Source of the DNA: a virus
Virus record (IMG/VR): IMGVR_UViG_3300027749_000046
Direction: 5' to 3' (one strand)
Length of the DNA stretch: 64,000 nt
Shown: positions 3,368 through 43,940 of the stretch, piece after piece
How the letters are laid out: every line of letters starts with the position of its first letter
Position numbering within the stretch: the first letter of the stretch is position 1
Position numbers and translations under genes: made by a program
The notes under the pieces: model-generated
Database searches by the model: none
What the model saw: the letters and a program-made list of their open reading frames with translations, nothing else
What the model was told of the DNA's origin: nothing

Positions 3368-6300
3368 TATGCAGAGACACCTATAGCTCTTATACTCGCC
3401 ACCATCGGCACGACAGATGGGTATTTAGCGAGCAATACAATCTTAAACTGCATTGTATCATAAGTATCAAACGTAACGTTATTGCCGTTGTAGTATCTCA
3501 CGACATTGTTGTTGTTCTTATTTGTGAAAGCTTGATACGGAGTACCACGCGCCGTGACATATCCAGTTGACGACAGCGCCTCTGCTCTGCCTACCAGCGA
3601 TATATTCAGTCCCGAGCCAACTACGCCGTACTGAGTTAGTACTGAATCGTTGATGTTAATAGAGGTATCGCTGTCTATAGTATTGACCACCGCTATCTGA
3701 TAGTTAGTAGGAAATAGAGGTGATGAGATCTTAACGATATCGCCTACCCTGTAGTCCAGACCAAACGTAGTTCCAATTCCAACTATATTCGTGCTGCCGT
3801 TTGCGGCTGTAACTACTCCCTGAGAAGTAAATACTACTGGCGGAGATGCAGGAAAGCCAAGCTGGTACTCTACTATATTTGATAGGTCTGTCGAGCTCGA
3901 GTATCTACTCTGGTTGGTCTTGTACTCTAGAAGCGTCCAGTCTTTATCATCGAATGGTTCTGGATCGTCTTTATTGTGAATCTTTACGTATACATACACG
4001 TCTGTATCTATAGGGCGATACGCATTTACATATGCTACGACGTCTTCTGCCGACTGATTATTAGCAAAATTTATCTTTGTAGTTATGTGCTTGGCTACTG
4101 CGTTACCGTGTCTAGTATTCTCAAGTGTCGCGTCATTGTTGATGTAGTACGAAGCGGCATACACGTCCGCATAAGAAGTAACGGGCACCTCGAAGTCGTT
4201 ATTTGAGGTGGCAGTAATCGTAAGAACAGTCTTGTTGTTTGCAGTCAGAGATCCGTTGTTAGCTATAACGACACCCTCTTGATATACCTCATTTGATCTC
4301 GACATAACCATGAGCGTGTTGCCAAAGTTAGTAAGAGTATTGGCACTTGGGTTAATAGTCAAACCGACTGGAGTCGGATGGTCTATACCATTATAGCCAC
4401 CATAGGTTACCGTACCATTTGAAGCTCTAAACCAAGGGGTAGAATACTTTATATCTATAGATAAAATACTCTTGGATTTATTAGTACTAACCGAAGGCAC
4501 TAACTTGCTTAGTTCTTGATCTACCATAACGGTATTACTGAATACTATACCGCTGTGCTCAGAACGCAGGGTAGAACCAACACTGAAGAAGAGATTAGCA
4601 CCCGTACCGCTTGATGCAGCATTAGATGAATTCTTTATGTTGTACTTCACATTTGTGACTGTGTCGTAGCTGTAGAATCCATATCCAGGATTAGTTATCG
4701 AGGTGTTAACAATAGCACCTGTGTTATTTGTTATTACGTTTGCGTAGGCGTTGACTGATTTAGAATATCCATTACCCGCGTATATCTCGATGAAGTCTGT
4801 GTTTGAGTATCCGGATCCAGTAGCGCTCTCTGTGTTTGCTCCTGGCGTGAGAGTGAGAACTGACGCGCTGTTTGCATACACGAACTGACCGGCAGATGAA
4901 GTTATGATATCGCCTATGTCTACAAACTGAGTGAGAGCAGTTCCGACGAACGTATTAGAACCAAATCCCATGCCCCTCAGAACTGCTTGTCTTCCGTTCT
5001 TCTTTGTGAGATTCGCAGGCATATCTCTCAGAGACCAGTTTATACCATCTGTTGATACCATGGTGTAAGAAGCGTGCTTTGTACCCATTCCGCCGGAAGC
5101 CATGAACACGCCGTCGCCGTATGTAACTCCGAATAGATATGAAACGCTTTTCTCAGGTGTAACGGCCCTGAATGTCCAGGTAGATCCGTCCGAAGACGTC
5201 TGTATTCCGGCTGTTCCTACAGCCACGAATAGACCATTTCCATAAGCTACGTCAAAGAACTGACCGATAGGTCCTGCGGTATCTCTAGTAGCAACTGTCC
5301 ATGTAGTTCCATTTGTAGACTTAACGAAATTATTATCGCCTACTGCAACGTATACTCCATTTCCATAGGCTGCACCCCTGAGTGCTCCATCTGTATTTGA
5401 AGTTGCCCAAGAGCGCTGAGTCCAAGTTATAGTATCTGTAGAAGATAAGACATAAGATCTTATTCTATCGTATCCAAACCGTCCAACTGCAATGTACACA
5501 CCGTTTCCATAAGCAGCTCCTCTAAGAGTATAGAGACCATCTTGATTAGGAGTTGTGGCTTGAGTCCATGTAACTGCGTTGTTTGTAGAGGTCCAGATAT
5601 TGCTGCTTCCGCCGACAGCAAAGAAAATTCCATTACCATATGAAACCGCATAGAAAGATGTATTAGAAGAAGTATTCTGATATCTCGATGTCCAAGTAGC
5701 TGCATTATTAGAAGACTGAATTGTTAGGTTCTCACCGACTGCGACAAACGCGCCGTTGCCGTATTGCACGTCGTACATCGGTGTAGAGACCGCGCCGTTA
5801 GACACAGCAAATATATTCTGGTAAGAGACTATAGGAAGATTGAGTGAGATGTACTCGATTGTATTGTTGACAAATCTAACTGTCGAGTTTGCATTGGAGT
5901 TTGTCATATAGAATGCGTCGTACAGCTTCTTCACGCCATCGAGAGGCGGAGAATCCAGCTGATCATAGTCCCAGTCAGGCGGATGATGGAAGCGATTATC
6001 AGCAAAGTAGAACTGACCAACTGGAGATATACACATCTTAGCGGTGTTATCTGAGAATGTAGGGTTAGTATCTACGGTAATCTGTGTGTTCGAGTCGATG
6101 CTGACAATCTTTCTTACGTCTGTATCGCTTCTATACGGGTCATACTGCCAAGAGCCGGTTGGATACTTGAACTTAGGCCTGTTATTGAAAGATCTGGTGT
6201 CAGTCCCCATATAGTTATTTTGAACGAGGACGATGTACATGTCGTTGTTTGGATTAGCCTTATACAGGCTGTTGAAGTTTATACTGCCGTCACTCTTGAT

Positions 6301-7131
6301 GATACGCGAGCTGGAATTTACTATGAGATTACCCGGTACGATAGGAGTAACCTGATAGATAAGATCGCCTGATGCTATGTCTCCATCCTTATATCCAACG
6401 GTAGTTATCTGTGAGTTTCCACCGTTCTTTGAGTATCTTCCACCTGCAGTTTCATAGGAGTTATATCTGTCATATACTACGAATTCTTGTGGATTCTTAT
6501 TTTTTATGAAAGACACAGTGTATGGATTAACAGCGGCGTTTGCGCCTGATGTAGATATATTATATCTTCCAACATACGCCGTGAACATAAGATCTTCGTT
6601 AGTTACTGGAATCCAGTCTATTCCAACGCCGCCAGATCCCTTCTTGTACTCGTAGTAGGCGCCGATGTTTCTTGCAAAAGATCCAGGCGACTTGGTGCTC
6701 GTTCCAACTATAACGTCATTCTGTCTGCATGTCCAGAGAAAGAAGTCTTCATTTCCATCGTAGGCTATGACAAATGCATACATGGCGCCTGTTGTAGCTA
6801 CAACTGGATTGTTGAACTTAAAGTTTGTCTTTACCCAGTTTGCCTGAGGTGTCGTTGGCGCGTTAATATTAATTCCAGCATACTCAACTCGAGCCACACC
6901 GTATCTGTCTATGTTATCAAGATCTGGTACGCTGTTGCCCTTGGTAGGAACAAAATAGACAGTAACACCGGGATTTGTAATACCAGATTTATTATTGGTG
7001 GCAGTTGGTTTTGCCTCAAAATACAGATCTACGCTAGTAACAATCACTTGCTCTGCATTCTGTACCACAGAGCTATCAATATAGAAAGTCTGTGCCAGAT
7101 TAAATAGTGTAGGCGCTGGTACCGTCATCAA
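3367..7131 (-). CDS. Large virion structural protein (VrlC-like C-terminal region) with inserted YGNG-repeat propeller
   Basis: LAQTFYI...SVDLYFEAKP start; FKIVLL...SIRAIG end; internal YGNGxFVAVG repeats. Confidence 0.75.
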   Translation of the reverse strand: MMTVPAPTLFNLAQTFYIDSSVVQNAEQVIVTSVDLYFEAKPTATNNKSGITNPGVTVYFVPTKGNSVPDLDNIDRYGVARVEYAGININAPTTPQANWVKTNFKFNNPVVATTGAMYAFVIAYDGNEDFFLWTCRQNDVIVGTSTKSPGSFARNIGAYYEYKKGSGGVGIDWIPVTNEDLMFTAYVGRYNISTSGANAAVNPYTVSFIKNKNPQEFVVYDRYNSYETAGGRYSKNGGNSQITTVGYKDGDIASGDLIYQVTPIVPGNLIVNSSSRIIKSDGSINFNSLYKANPNNDMYIVLVQNNYMGTDTRSFNNRPKFKYPTGSWQYDPYRSDTDVRKIVSIDSNTQITVDTNPTFSDNTAKMCISPVGQFYFADNRFHHPPDWDYDQLDSPPLDGVKKLYDAFYMTNSNANSTVRFVNNTIEYISLNLPIVSYQNIFAVSNGAVSTPMYDVQYGNGAFVAVGENLTIQSSNNAATWTSRYQNTSSNTSFYAVSYGNGIFFAVGGSSNIWTSTNNAVTWTQATTPNQDGLYTLRGAAYGNGVYIAVGRFGYDRIRSYVLSSTDTITWTQRSWATSNTDGALRGAAYGNGVYVAVGDNNFVKSTNGTTWTVATRDTAGPIGQFFDVAYGNGLFVAVGTAGIQTSSDGSTWTFRAVTPEKSVSYLFGVTYGDGVFMASGGMGTKHASYTMVSTDGINWSLRDMPANLTKKNGRQAVLRGMGFGSNTFVGTALTQFVDIGDIITSSAGQFVYANSASVLTLTPGANTESATGSGYSNTDFIEIYAGNGYSKSVNAYANVITNNTGAIVNTSITNPGYGFYSYDTVTNVKYNIKNSSNAASSGTGANLFFSVGSTLRSEHSGIVFSNTVMVDQELSKLVPSVSTNKSKSILSIDIKYSTPWFRASNGTVTYGGYNGIDHPTPVGLTINPSANTLTNFGNTLMVMSRSNEVYQEGVVIANNGSLTANNKTVLTITATSNNDFEVPVTSYADVYAASYYINNDATLENTRHGNAVAKHITTKINFANNQSAEDVVAYVNAYRPIDTDVYVYVKIHNKDDPEPFDDKDWTLLEYKTNQSRYSSSTDLSNIVEYQLGFPASPPVVFTSQGVVTAANGSTNIVGIGTTFGLDYRVGDIVKISSPLFPTNYQIAVVNTIDSDTSININDSVLTQYGVVGSGLNISLVGRAEALSSTGYVTARGTPYQAFTNKNNNNVVRYYNGNNVTFDTYDTMQFKIVLLAKYPSVVPMVASIRAIGVSA

Positions 7132-7200: not shown

Positions 7201-10200
7201 TCAAGTGTCATCGCCTTCACCTACAGCAGTTCCAAGTCCATTTTCTTGGTTTGCAAATCCATAATCAGTTTTATTATCTTGACTATTATTCTCAGGTCCG
7301 CGATTATCCCATGCTCGGCCATTGTCACCAAGACCATTAGAAGTTTCTTCAGGAGGTGGCGGTAGAGGAGCGAGTCTAGTCGCGGGAAGACTAAATGCAC
7401 CTACAGAAGAATTATCGCTGCTCTTAACTAGAACTACCTTTTTTGTAGGATTGACATTTGTATTCTTATACAGATTATTATATGCGTACTCATCTATATT
7501 AATCATGATAAAGAAATTTGCACTGCCGCTGGCATCAGTCTGCACTTGATCTGTAACTTGACTTACCGATGTGCTTGCTGGTAGACTATCGCTCGATAGA
7601 AGTATAGCTGAGTTTGACAGTAGCTTATCATCTAGGTATATGCTGTGCTTTGTAAGAGGCTTGAGACTCTTCATCTTTATACTTACTTTTTGTCCGTACC
7701 AGATTAGAGCATTCTTATTGTCATATCTTGGTATCACTAAAGTATCAGGATCTACACTTACAGCAACGCCATTATAGATAGTAGCATCAATACCGCCCTT
7801 TGTAGCCCCAGTTGCTATATTCTGAGATACAACGCTGTACTCTTGGATATACGTAATTTTATTATTTCCGGTGTGATTTATGAGCACAGGAAGATCTGCC
7901 GGCGTGATCATACCATTTGATACTCTGGCATTATACTCGACATTATTAATATCGGTAAATGAGTAGTTTGAGAATGTATCTGTAAAGAACCCAAACTTAA
8001 ATCTATTGATACTTGGAGAAATAGAGCTCGGTATGGTAGTGTCTTTTATAGAAGTTTCCAACATCGTAAGACCAGTGTAGTACTCTAATGCGCGTATTCT
8101 TTTCTCAAGAGTTCCTATGTCTCGCATAGTATAAGCTATTGGCTGTATGCTATTTCTATTGGAGACATAGTTAGTCGTAATAGAGTGATTTTGTGATCTA
8201 ATGAAACTGTATTTCTCAGTTGCTATTCTCGTGTTAATAATATTATTAAGATTTGTAGATCTATGCAGGGGTATAGATGGATACGGCGGATTAACAACGT
8301 TACTTATAACCATAGTATTGCTTGGCGTACGAGGATTTGGTAGGCGTGTTCCCTCAGCGCTCTGGCCTTTGACTAGAGATATCTTTCCAGTAGTATCAAC
8401 TATCACGTTATCTCTTCTTCCTAAGAAGTGAGACTGATTGAAAGTTACGCCTGAACCCGGTACCGGAAATTTCTTATCAGACGTATAACTACCGAACGAT
8501 AGACTATATACTGGATTTACGTTTGCAGCAGCTGCATTGCTAGTTATCACAGCGGTGTTTACTGCGCTCGGTCTAAAGTCTATCTGGTCGATCAAATCAT
8601 AGTATCTTCCACTCGAAGCGTACATCTCAGGTATCTCAAGCGTATTATAGCTGGACCCAATACTCGACAAGTTCGATGAGTCAGTTGAGAACCGCGTGCT
8701 CAAGTTGGCGCTGACGTAAGATGATACCGTGTGTAGACTTCCGGCTGTCGTAGAGGCGTCAAATTGAACTAGAAGCCAGTTGGTAGTAGACAGACTCAAG
8801 CTTGATGTTGACTTCTTGTGGATATAGCCAAGATCATAGAAGTCTTCATTCTGGTTGTGATCGATATAGAACTCATTGGTAACATCTGAGCTGCTGGTTG
8901 ATACGTTAGAGTTGTCTGCCAGATATACATTCTTGAGGCGGAATATATCCGGAACACCTAGGCACCAAGGTCCATTTATTCCAGCTGCGTTATTAGCTAG
9001 TCTGATCTTTACAAAGCTGTCTCTGTTAGCTGTCTTTGCGTCTGCAGCCACACCGTTTCTATTGACGTTGTAGACCACAGAGACGTTTGCTGCAGAGGTC
9101 GCTGTAGTATTAACGTTGAGACTTACCGTGAGTATAGTACCGTTTGTATTGACATTTGCTACAAAATTATCTCTCTGAAGAGCTGGAGAAGACAGAGGTA
9201 TAGCCACGTTCTTTGGAAAGTATCTCGCCATACTGGCTGCTGAGTTTGAGAAAGATAGCTTGGAGTCCACATATAGGAAGCTATTATTGACTACAGCAGT
9301 TACTTTCTTTATGTCGTATACTGTTGAGTTCGCATAGAAGTAAACATAATCGCCGGCTATGAGGCCGCTGGTGGCACTTGCAAATACAGTACTCGTTCCA
9401 TATACGTTGGATGTACCGTCTGCGTTATTTGCAGCACTGGTTACGTTTGCAGTTCCCGCGAGGTCTGGAGTTATTCTCAAGCCTGCATTGAGCGGAGTTA
9501 TGATAATATCATTCTTTTGATCAAAGGTAAGAGTAGTACCGCCTACGTATTGAAACACCTCATTGGGAGAAGAAAGAAGACTTATCTGGAGCGAACCTGT
9601 ATTTGAGAGAGTTATTCCGTTATTTACGGTTCTATAGAGATAATTTAGATTGCTCACGGCGAGAGTTGATTTTGTTCCTGTATTAAACAGCATCTTATTA
9701 ACGCCGTTTATACCTCTTACTAGATTAGCTATACTTGTATTGCTAGATGCATTATAAGCCAGTAGTACGTCGGCCACACCCTTTACGGTACCGTTGTAGT
9801 TAATACCCTTTACCGAGCTGAAGTTGGCTCCAGCAATCATATTAAGATTAAAGAGATACAGTCTATATACTGCGCCGCTGAATCCGGGAGTACCAGATAC
9901 GTGAAGCATCTGACGAATATTCGCAGTGCCAATCTTATTACCAGAGTATCCAGAAGGAGGTATTGTACCTGCAGAAATTGCCGCAGTATTAGATAGATAT
10001 CCATACGCTTTGTCATAGAGATCTATTGAATCACCCGTGCTAAACATAAAGGTGCCTGCGACTTGACTGATGTCGACGTAGTTCTCATAGGATACGTTTA
10101 TACCAGATCCATTACTCGAGCTGTAGTCGATTGCCTTGATATTATCAAATGCGTAGTTGAAGAGAGTAGATACCCTAAAGCCAGATACGTATGCAGTACC

Positions 10201-27489: not shown

Positions 27490-29046
27490 ATGGTGGACAT
27501 ACCGGGCGGTATCTACAGGACAGTAACTGGTGCCGCCAAGGCAGTTGGCAGAGAGACTCTCGCCGGAGTAGTAGGTCCGCGCGGAGCCGACGCACTTATA
27601 AGAAACTTCTCAAGCGCAGCTGCTACTAACACGAGCGCCATGCAGGGAGTTATGCGCGCTGTAGTTGAGTCTAATAGATTAAACACTCAGATCTACAAGG
27701 AAGTTCGCTCTCAGAGTGTTCTTCTCGACAGCATGAACATGAATATGCTGGCGATAAAGAACGGCATAGCGAACTTGACATATCAATTGTCCGGCGGTGG
27801 AAATAGATCTACCAATGTAATATCACAGAGTGGAAACTCGGAAGACACAGGTCTGCTGGGTATGATTACATCTGGCGCAGTAGACTCTGTGGTACCAATT
27901 ATTGTTCCAGTTGTAGCCGCCGTGCTGGCCGGAATATTTGGGGCTAACTATAAAGATATAGTAAAATACTTAAAAAAAGACCCCTATGAAAAAGGCGGTA
28001 GCACAGGTCAAGAATCTCGTACTCGCAATAACTACGCTCGCGATCCAGAGACCGGTCAGTACTCAGAAGAAGCATTTAAGAAAGAGACGACAAGACCGGG
28101 TTTCAATCCCGACAACTTAGTATATGACTACAATAGCGATGTTAAGTCGGGTGCACCAGTTCCCCCTTATATAGAGAAGTACGTTGAGCAGCTCAGAGAC
28201 GAATCCAAAAAGAGGGGAGAAGAAACTCCTAAGTCAAGTACAAACTTAGGATTTAAGCAAGATATCTCTCCGACTCCATCACCCGATACGACAAAGTCAT
28301 CTGTTCTGGGCATGCCTATAGAGAGAGTCCATGAGCTCTATAAGAAGTTTGGTGCGCCCGGTCCATCTGGTTCAAATGGAATGCTTCCCGATAACGCTCT
28401 GACTACAGTAGATGGAACTAAAGCAGAATCAGCAACTGCCGCAGACTATCTCAAGATGAAAGAAGCAGCTGCGAAAGACGGCGTAAGCTGGGGTAAGCCG
28501 AGCGGTTATAGAACTTACGACGAGCAGGTAGCACTCGCTGAGCAGAAAGGAATATACGGGCACGGCGGACTGGCCGCTACTCCTGGAAGATCTAACCATG
28601 GTCTCGGCATGGCCTTTGACCTAAGCGGTATGAACGACAAGGCCTTCAAGTGGCTTGAGCAGCATGGTACAGACTATGGATTTAAGACTATACCAGGAGA
28701 AAAGTGGCACTGGGAGCATACAGCACAGAGACAAGCCGCTCTTGGAACAGGCGCCAGCAGGCAGGCGAGCGAAGAGTCATCAAGCAAAGTTGCAATGCTA
28801 GAGCCGGGCAATAGTACTGGCGATAATATAGCGAGTAACTCTATAAAGAGAGAAGAACAGCAAGCAGTATCTCCTTCAGTTATCATGCAGAGTTCTGCGT
28901 CCGATACAGATCACGCGAGAGCCAATCCTATAATGCCAAAAGGCGCAAATGATCCAAGTCCACACAGCGTGCCGGATGTGCATAGTAGGTCCATCATAGC
29001 GAGTCTGTTTGGCATGGACGCCGACCCTAGACTAGGAACTGCATAG
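27490..29046 (+). CDS. Virion-associated protein with M15 (D-Ala-D-Ala carboxypeptidase-like) peptidase domain
   Basis: SGYRTYDEQ...ATPGRSNHGLGMAFD...EKWHWE. Confidence 0.85.
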   Translation: MVDIPGGIYRTVTGAAKAVGRETLAGVVGPRGADALIRNFSSAAATNTSAMQGVMRAVVESNRLNTQIYKEVRSQSVLLDSMNMNMLAIKNGIANLTYQLSGGGNRSTNVISQSGNSEDTGLLGMITSGAVDSVVPIIVPVVAAVLAGIFGANYKDIVKYLKKDPYEKGGSTGQESRTRNNYARDPETGQYSEEAFKKETTRPGFNPDNLVYDYNSDVKSGAPVPPYIEKYVEQLRDESKKRGEETPKSSTNLGFKQDISPTPSPDTTKSSVLGMPIERVHELYKKFGAPGPSGSNGMLPDNALTTVDGTKAESATAADYLKMKEAAAKDGVSWGKPSGYRTYDEQVALAEQKGIYGHGGLAATPGRSNHGLGMAFDLSGMNDKAFKWLEQHGTDYGFKTIPGEKWHWEHTAQRQAALGTGASRQASEESSSKVAMLEPGNSTGDNIASNSIKREEQQAVSPSVIMQSSASDTDHARANPIMPKGANDPSPHSVPDVHSRSIIASLFGMDADPRLGTA

Positions 29047-29047
29047 T

Positions 29048-30559
29048 ATGGCAGATTCACCAGGTGGGCTATATAGGACAACTACTGAAGATCAAATATC
29101 CTCTGCAACAAAGAGCTTTGCGGGACAGACAGCTTCATTTAGAAATGTATCTAGCGCTGTTACCACATCTAATAGAATAACTAATCAGGTCTATAAAGAA
29201 GTCAGAAATAATACCGCTCTTCTCAATAGTATAAACTTGAATATGATAGGTCTAAAGAACGGCATAGCGAACTTGAGCTATCATCTCTCTAGACAGACGT
29301 CAAATAAACCTGATACAATTGGTTCACAAAAAAGAGAAAATGGAAGAGGAATCACAGAGTACCTCATACCTGTTGCCGCTGGTGTTATAGCAGCTCTGGG
29401 ACTATCTTCTACTACAACTAATGCCAAAGACGATAAACCGCCACCAGAGAGCAGTGGTTCTACTGCGTCGCCTGATGTCAAAAAAAGTGATGTGCCGTCT
29501 GACGTTAAAAAGAGTGACACAACTGGACAAAGTATTCCTGCGCCAGAGGGTAGAACAGAAGCTCCAGCCGCAGCGCCTGTAAAGTCTCAGCCTGCTCAGT
29601 CGCTGCAAACACCAGCGAGTAAAGCGCCTGATGCAGAGAAAGTACAGCAAGCTCCTGCAGTGCCTGCACCAGCAAGTCCATCTGTACCCCCTATAGCTGC
29701 AACTCCACTTCCGCCTCTCAAAGAAGCTAAATCAGAGAAACCAGCGCCAGTTCAAGGGCCTCATACTCCTGGATCTCCATGGAATAAAGATCGTATAGAG
29801 GGAAAAGATATCCCTCCGCCCGCAGAGAAGCCAGTTCCTCTCCCTCCTGTAAGACCGCCAGAAGAGAAGAATGAGCCAGTTAAAAAAGATAAAGCTGCTG
29901 GTGATTCTAATTTAGTACGCATGAATAAACGCACATATGTGGGTAAGCCTGAATTTATATCCGCATCAGACATACTCAGCTATCTCATGGGTAAGACTGA
30001 TAGAGTTCATGCAATAGGTATCATTGCAAACATGGAGCGCGAGTCGAGCTTCAGTCCAAATGTTCTTGGGGATGATAAAACATCAGGGGGACTATTTCAG
30101 CACCATCTTGATAGATTCAAAGCGATGAAGGACTACGTGGGTCCAAACTGGACTAGTGATTGGAAGAAGCAGATCGACTATGCCTTCAATGAGAAACAAA
30201 TGAATGATTATCTGGCTAAGAAATTCAAGAATAGCGAGGCCGCGGCTTCTGAATTTGTTGATATATTTGAACGTCCTAAAGATGGGACAAAGGCAAAAAG
30301 CGGTGCTATAGCAAACGCAAAGAAATACGATAAGTCATCTGATGCTGGAGATACTCTCAATGATAGGTCTATGAATACAGAGGCTAATAGAACTGCAATG
30401 GCAAACAGACCCATCGTACTTCCTGTTCCAAGCCAGAGAGGCACGCAGATGACTGCCAATAGAGGTTCAGGCTCTGGAAGATCTGGTAGAAGTAATCCAC
30501 TCTTTGCCGGTGAGATCATCGGTCATCTGTTTGGATTGGATGACCATCAGGCTGCATAA
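29048..30559 (+). CDS. Virion-associated protein with phage tail lysozyme domain
   Basis: GIIANMERES...GGLFQ...QIDY...FERP, preceded by a Pro-rich linker. Confidence 0.8.
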   Translation: MADSPGGLYRTTTEDQISSATKSFAGQTASFRNVSSAVTTSNRITNQVYKEVRNNTALLNSINLNMIGLKNGIANLSYHLSRQTSNKPDTIGSQKRENGRGITEYLIPVAAGVIAALGLSSTTTNAKDDKPPPESSGSTASPDVKKSDVPSDVKKSDTTGQSIPAPEGRTEAPAAAPVKSQPAQSLQTPASKAPDAEKVQQAPAVPAPASPSVPPIAATPLPPLKEAKSEKPAPVQGPHTPGSPWNKDRIEGKDIPPPAEKPVPLPPVRPPEEKNEPVKKDKAAGDSNLVRMNKRTYVGKPEFISASDILSYLMGKTDRVHAIGIIANMERESSFSPNVLGDDKTSGGLFQHHLDRFKAMKDYVGPNWTSDWKKQIDYAFNEKQMNDYLAKKFKNSEAAASEFVDIFERPKDGTKAKSGAIANAKKYDKSSDAGDTLNDRSMNTEANRTAMANRPIVLPVPSQRGTQMTANRGSGSGRSGRSNPLFAGEIIGHLFGLDDHQAA

Positions 30560-32614: not shown

Positions 32615-32706
32615 TGGTAGGCGTGGAGGGATTCGAACCCCCTCGAGAACGGTAATCTGCCGCTGAAAGGCTTATAAGGCCTCCCTGTGTACCAACACCC
32701 ACGCCT
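32615..32706 (-). tRNA. Atypical tRNA with UAU anticodon (Ile-like acceptor, 4-nt D-loop, long variable arm)
   Basis: AGGCGTG/CACGCCT-A-CCA acceptor; GAGGC-CTTATAA-GCCTT anticodon arm; GGTTCGAATCC T-arm; 92 nt. Confidence 0.8.
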
Positions 32707-32711
32707 ATGAT

Positions 32712-32787
32712 TGGCGATCACCAAGGGACTCGAACCCCTAACCTAGAGAGTAGAAATCTCTTGCTCTTCCAGTTGAGCTAGGTGACC
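32712..32787 (-). tRNA. tRNA-Arg(UCU)
   Basis: Canonical 76-nt cloverleaf; AGAGA-TTTCTAC-TCTCT anticodon arm; CCA encoded. Confidence 0.95.
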
Positions 32788-33010: not shown

Positions 33011-33041
33011 AGTAGTCTCCTGTGTCTGTGTTTGTGTAGTG

Positions 33042-33350
33042 AGTCCGTTATTTGATAGGGTGGAACTCATACCCCAGACTTATCTTTTAAGCAGCAATTT
33101 TCATTGCGGAATAATTAATATTGTCATTATGTGCTTTTTTTGCAGATAACTTATTTATGCAGTCGTCTCGGTCCGCTTTTAACACACCTGTCGATCCTAT
33201 TTCGCCCCCATCAAAGATACATCGGGTGTTCGGAGAAACCTATTACACCATATTTGTTCCGACTATGGAGACCGATGTATCCATGGTGGAGGCGGCGGGT
33301 ACCGCCCCCGCGTCCAGTATGTCTATTCTGCTTTCGTCATCAACAACAGC
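33042..33350 (-). ncRNA. ssrA: tmRNA, circularly permuted two-piece (alphaproteobacterial type)
   Basis: Acceptor piece ends CGCCTCCACCA (33284), then an intervening hairpin, then the coding piece starting GGGGGCGAAATAGGATCGAC (33209); G3-U70 pair; tag ORF ends NDN...IAA* (33087-33143); outer ends approximate. Confidence 0.9.
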
Positions 33351-33356
33351 ATATAT

Positions 33357-33387
33357 TATTTATACCACGTTTTAGATTATTTGTCAA
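33357..33387 (-). promoter_or_regulatory. Composite promoter for the tmRNA/tRNA unit: TTGACA-17-TATAAA merged with late TATAAATA
   Basis: TTGACA at 33382-33387; TATAAATA at 33357-33364. Confidence 0.75.
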
Positions 33388-33808
33388 TAACTAAATCAGG
33401 TCCTACTACATTAATTTTAACTAGTCGAGTAATGTTGAGATCTTTGCCGCCCCAGCGAGTGTACTCACGACCGCCGTCGACAAATACGGAATTGTCTGGA
33501 CTGCCGCGATAGTCGTGACGGAATCGACTGTAGATCACGTCACCGTTGTCAGCTACTATGCCATCGAACGGCTCGGTTGCAGAGTCGGCTTTGCAGATCA
33601 TCACATCTTTATCATAGACATACATGCCGAAGTAGTTAGACATCTCAGGAGGTGGGTGCGGTTGGTAGAACACGGCGGCTGGTTGATAGCTCCACCCGCC
33701 GTCTTTCGTCTTGAGACTGGAGTCACAGACATACTTGGCGCGATACGTCTCCTCGATCTTCTCGATAGACTCTTTAGGAAAGACGATAGACTCATTTAGG
33801 ATCTTCAT
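33377..33808 (-). CDS. Conserved hypothetical protein
   Basis: 143 aa; YSRFRHDY...VDGGREY motif. Confidence 0.75.
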   Translation of the reverse strand: MKILNESIVFPKESIEKIEETYRAKYVCDSSLKTKDGGWSYQPAAVFYQPHPPPEMSNYFGMYVYDKDVMICKADSATEPFDGIVADNGDVIYSRFRHDYRGSPDNSVFVDGGREYTRWGGKDLNITRLVKINVVGPDLVIDK

Positions 33809-43864: not shown

Positions 43865-43940
43865 TGGTGGACCCGGCAGGACTCGAACCTGCAACCAGAC
43901 CGTTATGAGCGGCCGGCTCTAACCATTGAGCTACAGGTCC
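43865..43940 (-). tRNA. tRNA-Ile2(CAU) (lysidine type; could be miscalled as Met)
   Basis: GGACCTGTAGCTCAATGGTTAGAGCCGGCCGCTCATAACGGTCTGG...CCACCA; closely resembles alphaproteobacterial Ile2 sequences as I recall them. Confidence 0.9.

Follow-up and report, generated by a model that had tools for sequence, protein, structure and literature searches.

A phage tRNA(UAU) family with a conserved GAU hairpin in its variable arm, and its probable role in reading AUA

The tRNA(UAU) locus and its surroundings

The window, i.e., the whole stretch of 64,000 nucleotides of viral DNA that was analyzed, contains four RNA genes according to ARAGORN, all on the minus strand: a tRNA with a UAU anticodon (hereafter X), a tRNA-Arg(tct), a permuted tmRNA, and a tRNA(cat) (Table 1). 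X was called as a 92-nt tRNA-Ile(tat). In the sense orientation, it shows a GUGU-UGGU-ACAC D hairpin, the loop CUUAUAA on a 7-bp stem, and a variable stem AGCGG/CCGUU. All the parts described in the original prediction, namely the 92-nt tRNA(UAU), the D hairpin, the anticodon stem, the variable stem, and the A-CCA end, are present in the sense sequence. The 7-bp acceptor, the 5-bp T stem, the T loop (UUCRANY), the discriminator, and the CCA end are canonical; the G at position 8 (no U8), the missing A14, the 4-nt D loop, and the 7-bp anticodon stem are not. Nothing in Rfam matched X at the gathering score, RF00005 included, and the best clan match at a loose threshold was tRNA-Sec (38.2 bits for a cut-off of 47). 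Some copies of X go uncalled by ARAGORN.

Table 1 RNA genes of the window and the parts of X
Feature	Position	Strand	Evidence or remark
tRNA(UAU) gene X, including CCA	32615-32706	-	ARAGORN; own covariance model R1, 111 bits
X acceptor stem, 5' strand (7 nt)	32700-32706	-	Partner strand 32619-32625
X discriminator A73 and CCA	32618 (A73); 32615-32617 (CCA)	-	Both invariant, 70/70 copies
X linker G8 (32699) and D hairpin (4-bp stem, UGGU tetraloop)	32687-32699	-	
X anticodon arm (7-bp stem, 7-nt loop)	32665-32685	-	UAU at 32674-32676
X variable arm (5-bp stem, loop CAGAUUA)	32648-32664	-	GAU "pseudo-anticodon" at 32655-32657
X linker CUNGA (5 nt), variable arm to T arm	32643-32647	-	
X T arm (5-bp stem, loop UUCGAAU)	32626-32642	-	
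tRNA-Arg(UCU), immediately upstream of X	32712-32787	-	ARAGORN; Rfam tRNA 62.4 bits
Permuted two-piece alpha-type tmRNA	33038-33391	-	Rfam 94 bits
tRNA(CAU), probable second AUA tRNA	43865-43940	-	ARAGORN and Rfam

X lies just upstream of homologs of gp33, gp59, and gp32, which identifies the window as DNA of a T4-like phage; its gp32 is ~60% identical to that of cyanomyoviruses. These T4-type genes recur near X, together with other lineage ORFs of unknown function and spurious ORFs over tRNAs, and no synthetase or modification enzyme that might be a dedicated partner was found among the annotated recurring clusters. X is an accessory gene and is absent from the closest relative (L001, gp59 71% identical), which has the tmRNA and the Arg(UCU) tRNA.

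In 32 of the 129 X loci, a tRNA-Arg(UCU) gene precedes X by no more than 60 nt, and the two genes may form a mobile two-tRNA cassette for AGA and AUA. The tmRNA adjoins tRNA-Arg(UCU) in L001, L005, L006, L018, L021, L027, and L028; in L012, L014, and L015, it is present and no Arg(UCU) was called by ARAGORN. For the tmRNA tag, the same program predicts a sequence of the type ANDN...LAA in the relatives and, in the window, the odd AKKAHNDNINYSAMKIAA. The pairing of an Arg(UCU) with a UAU tRNA was also seen on a Legionella MAG contig and in Acinetobacter phage qsb1 (L154 2756-2932; L177 1423-1592). The stretch itself is present in freshwater metagenome runs, and a single contig from an RNA library, belonging to a relative, covers X, with DNA carry-over being possible.

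Family, fold, and relation to tRNA-Sec and allo-tRNAs

The X family comprises at least 119 IMG/VR viral contigs, obtained in a first scan whose pattern fixed the D hairpin and left the anticodon free, and 7 MAG contigs. Although free to vary in the search, the anticodon was TAT in every match listed. A 30-nt piece of X had exact matches in 15 IMG/VR contigs. When two X patterns were run against the genomes of 185,579 species, only the 7 MAG contigs matched; X is essentially a phage gene. It had no blastn match among 50,697 GenBank phage records, and relatives in cultured phages were reached only through a second type of tRNA(UAU), X2, described below.

Seventy distinct full-length copies among the matches listed were aligned without gaps (alignment A1). 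On a 7/5 cloverleaf of 28 pairs, 99.1% of the cells hold a standard pair, compared to 83% after shuffling, and 17 of the pairs have changed on both sides. Compensatory changes were found in 5 of the 7 acceptor pairs (99.8% paired) and in all 5 pairs of the T stem (100% paired). The outermost pair of the anticodon stem (columns 22-42) is formed in 70/70 copies with 16 double changes, and the innermost (columns 28-36), beside the loop, is mismatched in 16/70. The UAU, U33, and A37 of the anticodon loop are invariant, as are the C, U, G, and A of the CUNGA linker in A1; this linker was set by the search pattern for the MAG members, just as the D stem was for A1. Members retrieved through a variable-arm pattern have other D stems (GACU/AGUC, GCAU/AUGC, and GCGU/ACGC, with NGGN loops), showing that the D hairpin covaries too; these variants are on MAG contigs, mostly within tRNA arrays. 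A covariance model built from A1 (R1) scores the family at 86-111 bits and ordinary tRNAs at no more than 39 bits. X, with 70 distinct homologs that keep their pairing at the level given above, is neither a product of chance nor a pseudogene.

Outside the helices, the base at the junction of the D and anticodon arms (column 21, window 32686) co-varies with the middle base of CUNGA (column 62, window 32645), the combinations in A1 being A:C (42 copies), G:U (22), G:A (5), and G:C (1), with an MI of 0.87, equal to that of true pairs. The two bases may form a tertiary wobble-type pair, and their co-variation suggests a compact, specific core in X.

Two members have an unusual setting. A complete X (L151 1966-2057, plus strand, 95.7 bits), uncalled by ARAGORN, was found in the 3.9-Mb chromosome of a Roseovarius MAG, with an integrase/helicase fragment on one side and host glycosidase genes on the other. 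Locus L153 carries two identical, inverted copies (6324-6415, plus strand, and 7656-7747, minus strand), each adjoining a tRNA-Arg(tct), the result of an inverted duplication or else an artefact of assembly.

The original prediction had drawn the acceptor branch as 7/5 or 8/4 and had related X to the tRNA-Sec-like allo-tRNAs with an 8/4 branch. The fifth pair of the T stem (columns 65-81) is formed in 70/70 copies with covariation (CG 57, GC 8, AU 2, UA 2, UG 1), and the alternative eighth acceptor pair (columns 8-81) in only 10/70; the branch is therefore 7/5, and covariation in A1 rules out the 8/4 fold, which can be drawn for the window copy and a few others. Consequently, the feature that defines allo-tRNAs, an 8/4 or 9/3 split, is missing, and the proposed relation does not hold. 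The "Ile-type acceptor" had a narrower validity than proposed: the window copy has A1-U72 and C4-G69, but the family has G1.U72 in 57/70 copies and C4-G69 in 29/70.

The allo-tRNA(UAU) of Acidobacteria (PMC5389517) shares with X its detection by the tRNA-Sec model, the D tetraloop, the long anticodon stem, the long variable arm, the UAU anticodon, and a five-stem junction. The published description nevertheless sets the two apart, as allo-tRNA(UAU) has an 8/4 branch and G73 or U73, whereas X is 7/5 with A73 in 70/70 copies. Allo-tRNAs are also marked by a long variable arm and by a D arm that combines a long stem with a tetraloop; X has the variable arm and an NGGN D tetraloop, the latter on a stem of 4 bp. 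Their settings differ as well, X being found in phage tRNA sets and allo-tRNA(UAU) near toxin-antitoxin or transposon genes (PMC5389517). No acidobacterial genome contig matched the variable-arm/linker motif of X. Since allo-tRNA(UAU) was described as abundant in soil metagenomes (PMC5389517), part of that count could be related to the X family. With tRNA-Sec (RF01852), X shares the UGGU D tetraloop, the extended anticodon stem, and the long variable arm, but its acceptor/T branch has 12 bp instead of 13 in the 7/5 arrangement, its D stem 4 bp instead of 6, its anticodon is UAU and not UCA, it has A73, and its score stays below the tRNA-Sec cut-off. In appearance, X is closest to tRNA-Sec and allo-tRNA(UAU), and it falls outside both. 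Its fold, with an upper half of the 7/5 type, a D hairpin like that of tRNA-Sec, and an anticodon stem of 7 bp, widens the known range of tRNA shapes that phages maintain.

The GAU hairpin of the variable arm

The long variable arm noted in the original prediction is present, and its telling feature, which had not been listed, is a conserved GAU at the center of the loop. In A1, the three central positions are G in 70/70, A in 70/70, and U in 69/70 copies, and the four flanking positions vary; the stem is 100% paired, and its two loop-proximal pairs covary. The loop sequence was free both in the first scan, whose pattern included the opening AGC of the stem, and in a scan that put no constraint on the variable arm, where this AGC is retained as well.

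GAC takes the place of GAU in one lineage (L083, L018, L125). A recoding of AUA to Val in this lineage was considered and found no support, the residues at 38 usable ATA sites being I (26%), T (21%), M (16%), and V (7%). No complementary partner co-varying with GAU was found in A1, and base-pairing between the GAU loop and the T-loop AUC was not supported either, as it showed no covariation. The position of the variable loop equivalent to U33 (column 49, window 32658) is A, C, or G in the 70 copies of X and never U, and it is A in 11 of 11 copies of X2, the sole exception being a deviant 91-nt copy (L157). This absence of U suggests selection against a real U-turn loop.

X2 was found in the tRNA array of locus L156. 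It is a different 92-nt tRNA(UAU), with U8/A9, a 7-nt D loop, and a 5-bp anticodon stem, in which the anticodon arm is followed by a hairpin and then by a 5-nt linker. When X2 was searched for without constraining its variable arm, 18 IMG/VR contigs were obtained with 11 distinct sequences, in which all four pairs of the variable stem covary without a mismatch and the loop reads YAGAUNN in 11/11, mostly CAGAUUA as in X. Cultured copies are present in Acinetobacter phage vB_AbaS_qsb1 and in Vibrio phages henriette 12B8 and Achelous, the two Vibrio phages being those inspected out of 43 matching records. These three copies have a normal body, a length of 91-93 nt, and a short GAU hairpin with the loop CAGAUAA, and they are annotated as plain "tRNA-Ile" in GenBank. 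The cultured long tRNA-Ile(UAU) and X2 thus share with X the UAU anticodon, A73, a length of 91-93 nt, and the loop CAGAUAA or CAGAUUA, but differ from it by U8/A9, a 7-8-nt D loop, a 5-bp anticodon stem, and R1 scores of 29-41 bits.

All the distinct tRNAs of at least 84 nt in the fetched loci served as a control set. A GAU centered in a 7-nt, stem-borne loop was found in 84/84 long UAU tRNAs and in 0/97 other long tRNAs (6/97 of which have GAU anywhere in the variable region), and the hairpin thus goes together with the UAU anticodon in three body plans. As for its origin, the 92 nt of X equal a 75-nt tRNA plus a 17-nt arm, and R1 places the anticodon arm of a neighboring tRNA-Ile(GAU) on the variable arm of X; arithmetic and alignment both fit an arm that would derive from a duplicated Ile anticodon arm.

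Locus L156 also holds the 5' half of an X gene (~5511-5545, minus strand), broken right past the anticodon loop, besides the intact X2 (4735-4826, minus strand), which looks like one tRNA(UAU) type replacing the other. In Vibrio phage Achelous, a tRNA-Ile(GAU) (L179 69-144, plus strand) lies directly upstream of the long tRNA(UAU) and has an apparent C instead of U at position 33 (CCGAUAA).

Probable decoding of AUA and possible routes of charging

ATA is the commonest Ile codon of the window (560 of 1290, 43%, or 29 per 1000 codons), and AGA the commonest Arg codon (45%). To assess the meaning of AUA, the window ORFs were aligned to the fetched loci, and the relatives' residue was counted only where their codon was not ATA. 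Across 256 ATA sites, this count gave I (30%), V (22%), and L (18%), which resembles the outcome at ATT/ATC sites (I 41%, V 17%, L 13%), while Leu-codon sites gave L in 55% and Ser-codon sites S in 34%. Judged from these alignments, AUA is Ile in these phages, so that any abundant reader of this codon would have to carry Ile or do harm.

In 35 of the 129 X loci, at least 10 other tRNAs lie within 5 kb; 28 of these 35 sets include a tRNA-Ile(GAU), and 24 contain a single CAU tRNA or none. In such tRNA sets, X takes the position of the AUA reader. No clear link was found between X and ATA usage across the X-bearing contigs (median ATA share 0.215), the loci being small and noisy. The tRNA(CAU) of the window has C4-G69 and C5-G68, its only matches in E. 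coli genomes are annotated as tRNA-Ile (PGAP), and its homologs in T4-like phages are annotated as Met or Ile. It is probably of the lysidine-dependent Ile2 type, in which case AUA would be served twice, by this tRNA and by X. Along with tRNA-Arg(UCU), they would cover AGA and AUA, the two rare-type codons that the phage uses most.

In ARAGORN, the Ile(tat) call survives deletion of the variable arm in 54/70 copies. The GAU arm was also considered as the true anticodon arm and rejected, since removing the UAU hairpin left no tRNA in 70/70 constructs. Among the three options of the original prediction (a TilS-independent AUA decoder, a decoder mischarged with Ser or Leu, and a nuclease-resistant or decoy tRNA), the first is the best supported, by the invariant UAU in a U33/A37 loop, A73, the CCA end, the placement in tRNA sets, and the heavy use of AUA at Ile-like sites, and nothing in the data favors a decoy or nuclease-resistant molecule. 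We consider it likely that X is a real translational AUA-to-Ile decoder and, with slightly more reserve, that it is a working phage tRNA reading AUA as Ile without the host TilS.

Bacteria normally read AUA through lysidine, which is made by TilS. The kcat/Km of E. coli IleRS for tRNA-Ile2 is 360-fold lower with a UAU than with a lysidine anticodon, the Trp responsible for this rejection is conserved in tilS-bearing bacteria, and a UAU tRNA misreads AUG on E. coli ribosomes; Mycoplasma mobile solved the problem with an altered IleRS (Arg865) (PMC3575796). The identity of E. coli tRNA-Ile relies on A73, A35, U36, A37, A38, and G34 or lysidine-34, and also on C4-G69, C29-G41, and G16, D20, and D21 in the D loop, with t6A37 acting as an IleRS determinant (PMC9976931). 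Among these, A73, A35, U36, and A37 are invariant in X, and position 38 is A in 56/70 copies. The rest of the set is largely missing: U34 is invariant, C4-G69 is confined to the minority of copies mentioned above, the D loop consists of just UGGU, and the pair matching C29-G41 (columns 26-38) is G-C in 61/70. With those elements missing elsewhere, the variable arm carries G-A-U and a C-G third pair.

As a phage cannot change the enzyme of its host, X would have to be charged by the unaltered host IleRS, which might use A73 and A35-U36-A37 plus, as a new element, the GAU hairpin with the usual Ile anticodon at the center of its loop, the latter supplying the missing identity signal to an enzyme that poorly recognizes U34. 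The normal upper half of X (7-bp acceptor and 5-bp T stem) would suit EF-Tu, and the charged tRNA would read AUA with its UAU loop, so that the anticodons read by the synthetase and by the ribosome would sit on separate arms. We tentatively propose the GAU hairpin as an IleRS handle that would physically separate the two anticodons and bypass TilS and lysidine, a reading that is possible rather than probable. IleRS is a monomer, and its anticodon-binding end is far from its active site. Since the variable loop is not at the anticodon position, a handle would require another stacking of the arms or a two-step capture; in an alternative coaxial stacking, the 5-bp GAU arm and the 5-nt linker could mimic a normal anticodon arm and variable loop. 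Such a handle is not obligatory, as cyanophage S-T4 has an ordinary 72-nt tRNA(UAU) without an extra arm.

That X reads AUA as Ile with a hairpin that is something other than a synthetase handle seems rather unlikely to us. The hairpin could then be a relic, left over from a duplication of the tRNA-Ile(GAU) anticodon arm and retained for the sake of folding; it could also be bound by a different factor, for instance a modification enzyme, or limit AUG misreading. The length arithmetic and the R1 alignment agree with a relic, the pseudo-loop has neither U33 nor A37, the GAC variant is tolerated, and the geometry speaks against simultaneous binding by a monomeric IleRS. However, a relic should drift, yet GAU is fixed while its flanks vary, the stems covary, and the motif recurs in three tRNA architectures; nor does any complementary partner co-vary with GAU. 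A role outside translation, as an anticodon-nuclease decoy, an IleRS sponge, or a regulatory RNA, is still less probable. Such a role was suggested for the acidobacterial allo-tRNA(UAU), six of which were inactive as suppressors in E. coli, with two being toxic (PMC5389517), and it would agree with the lack of U8/A14, the 7-bp anticodon stem, the Ile2-type tRNA that the phage already has, and the absence of X from close relatives. Against it stand the canonical 12-bp acceptor/T branch, the T loop, A73, CCA, and U33-UAU-A37 loop of a molecule that sits in the place of the AUA decoder in otherwise complete tRNA sets and matches the heavy use of AUA in the window, and the toxin-antitoxin or transposon context was not seen near X.

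The mischarged decoder, in which a LeuRS or SerRS that ignores the anticodon would charge X, so that a part of the AUA codons would be translated as Leu or Ser, appears very improbable, even though X has a long variable arm and A73, the Leu discriminator, the nematode nev-tRNA-Ile(UAU) is leucylated in vitro (PMC3333845, PMC4300185), and allo-tRNAs insert Ser at sense codons (PMC5389517). The alignments at AUA sites resemble those at Ile codons rather than those at Leu or Ser codons, and missense at 29 per 1000 codons would reach nearly every protein. The D loop of X lacks the core elements used by LeuRS, A73 is not the Ser discriminator (most allo-tRNAs, taken as Ser acceptors, have G73 or U73; PMC5389517), and the junctions of the variable arm (0 nt 5' and 5 nt 3' of the arm) are unlike those of Ser, Leu, and Tyr tRNAs.

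If the preferred reading of X as an AUA-to-Ile decoder holds, X would work most like the tRNA-Ile(UAU) of tilS-less bacteria. The tRNA-Ile2(UAU) of M. mobile (PMC3575796) has in common with it the lysidine-free reading of AUA and A73, but is an ordinary class I tRNA served by an adapted IleRS (Arg865), where X would rely on the host IleRS and the GAU hairpin. The anticodon-arm mimic at the tip of the variable arm has its counterpart in engineered tRNAs whose V arm carries a pseudo-anticodon that recruits the anticodon-binding domain of a synthetase and enhances aminoacylation, for which a synthetase with an extra anticodon-binding domain was needed (PMC7590224). Those tRNAs are synthetic, specific for His, and used with a fused-domain synthetase, whereas X is natural and would accept Ile from an unmodified host enzyme. 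The nematode nev-tRNA-Ile(UAU) has the class II shape and UAU anticodon of X but is eukaryotic and leucylated in vitro, with no GAU loop reported (PMC3333845), and the AUA sites of the window are Ile-like. Our literature search turned up neither an account of the X family nor a natural tRNA whose variable arm carries a pseudo-anticodon.

By reading AUA despite the rejection of UAU by IleRS, such a widespread phage tRNA would offer viruses a route round a host bottleneck at a codon that they use heavily. If the GAU hairpin were a charging signal, X would be the first case in nature of a tRNA with an identity arm built as a pseudo-anticodon. It would then uncouple identity from decoding, which synthetic biologists have so far had to engineer, and would provide a ready-made scaffold for codon reassignment. 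Such genes are missed or mislabeled by current annotation: X falls below the gathering score of the Rfam tRNA model, some of its copies escape ARAGORN, and the relatives in cultured phages appear as plain tRNA-Ile in GenBank.

A few further features of these loci were noted. In the tRNA array of L157 (8968-9045, plus strand), ARAGORN called a 78-nt "tRNA-SeC(tca)", which could be an opal suppressor, and in that of L025 (1307-1382, minus strand) a tRNA whose anticodon has only two bases. In the window, positions 27490-30559 (plus strand) encode two large neighboring proteins, the one with a VanY-type peptidase domain and the other with a phage tail lysozyme domain; both match tape-measure PHROGs.
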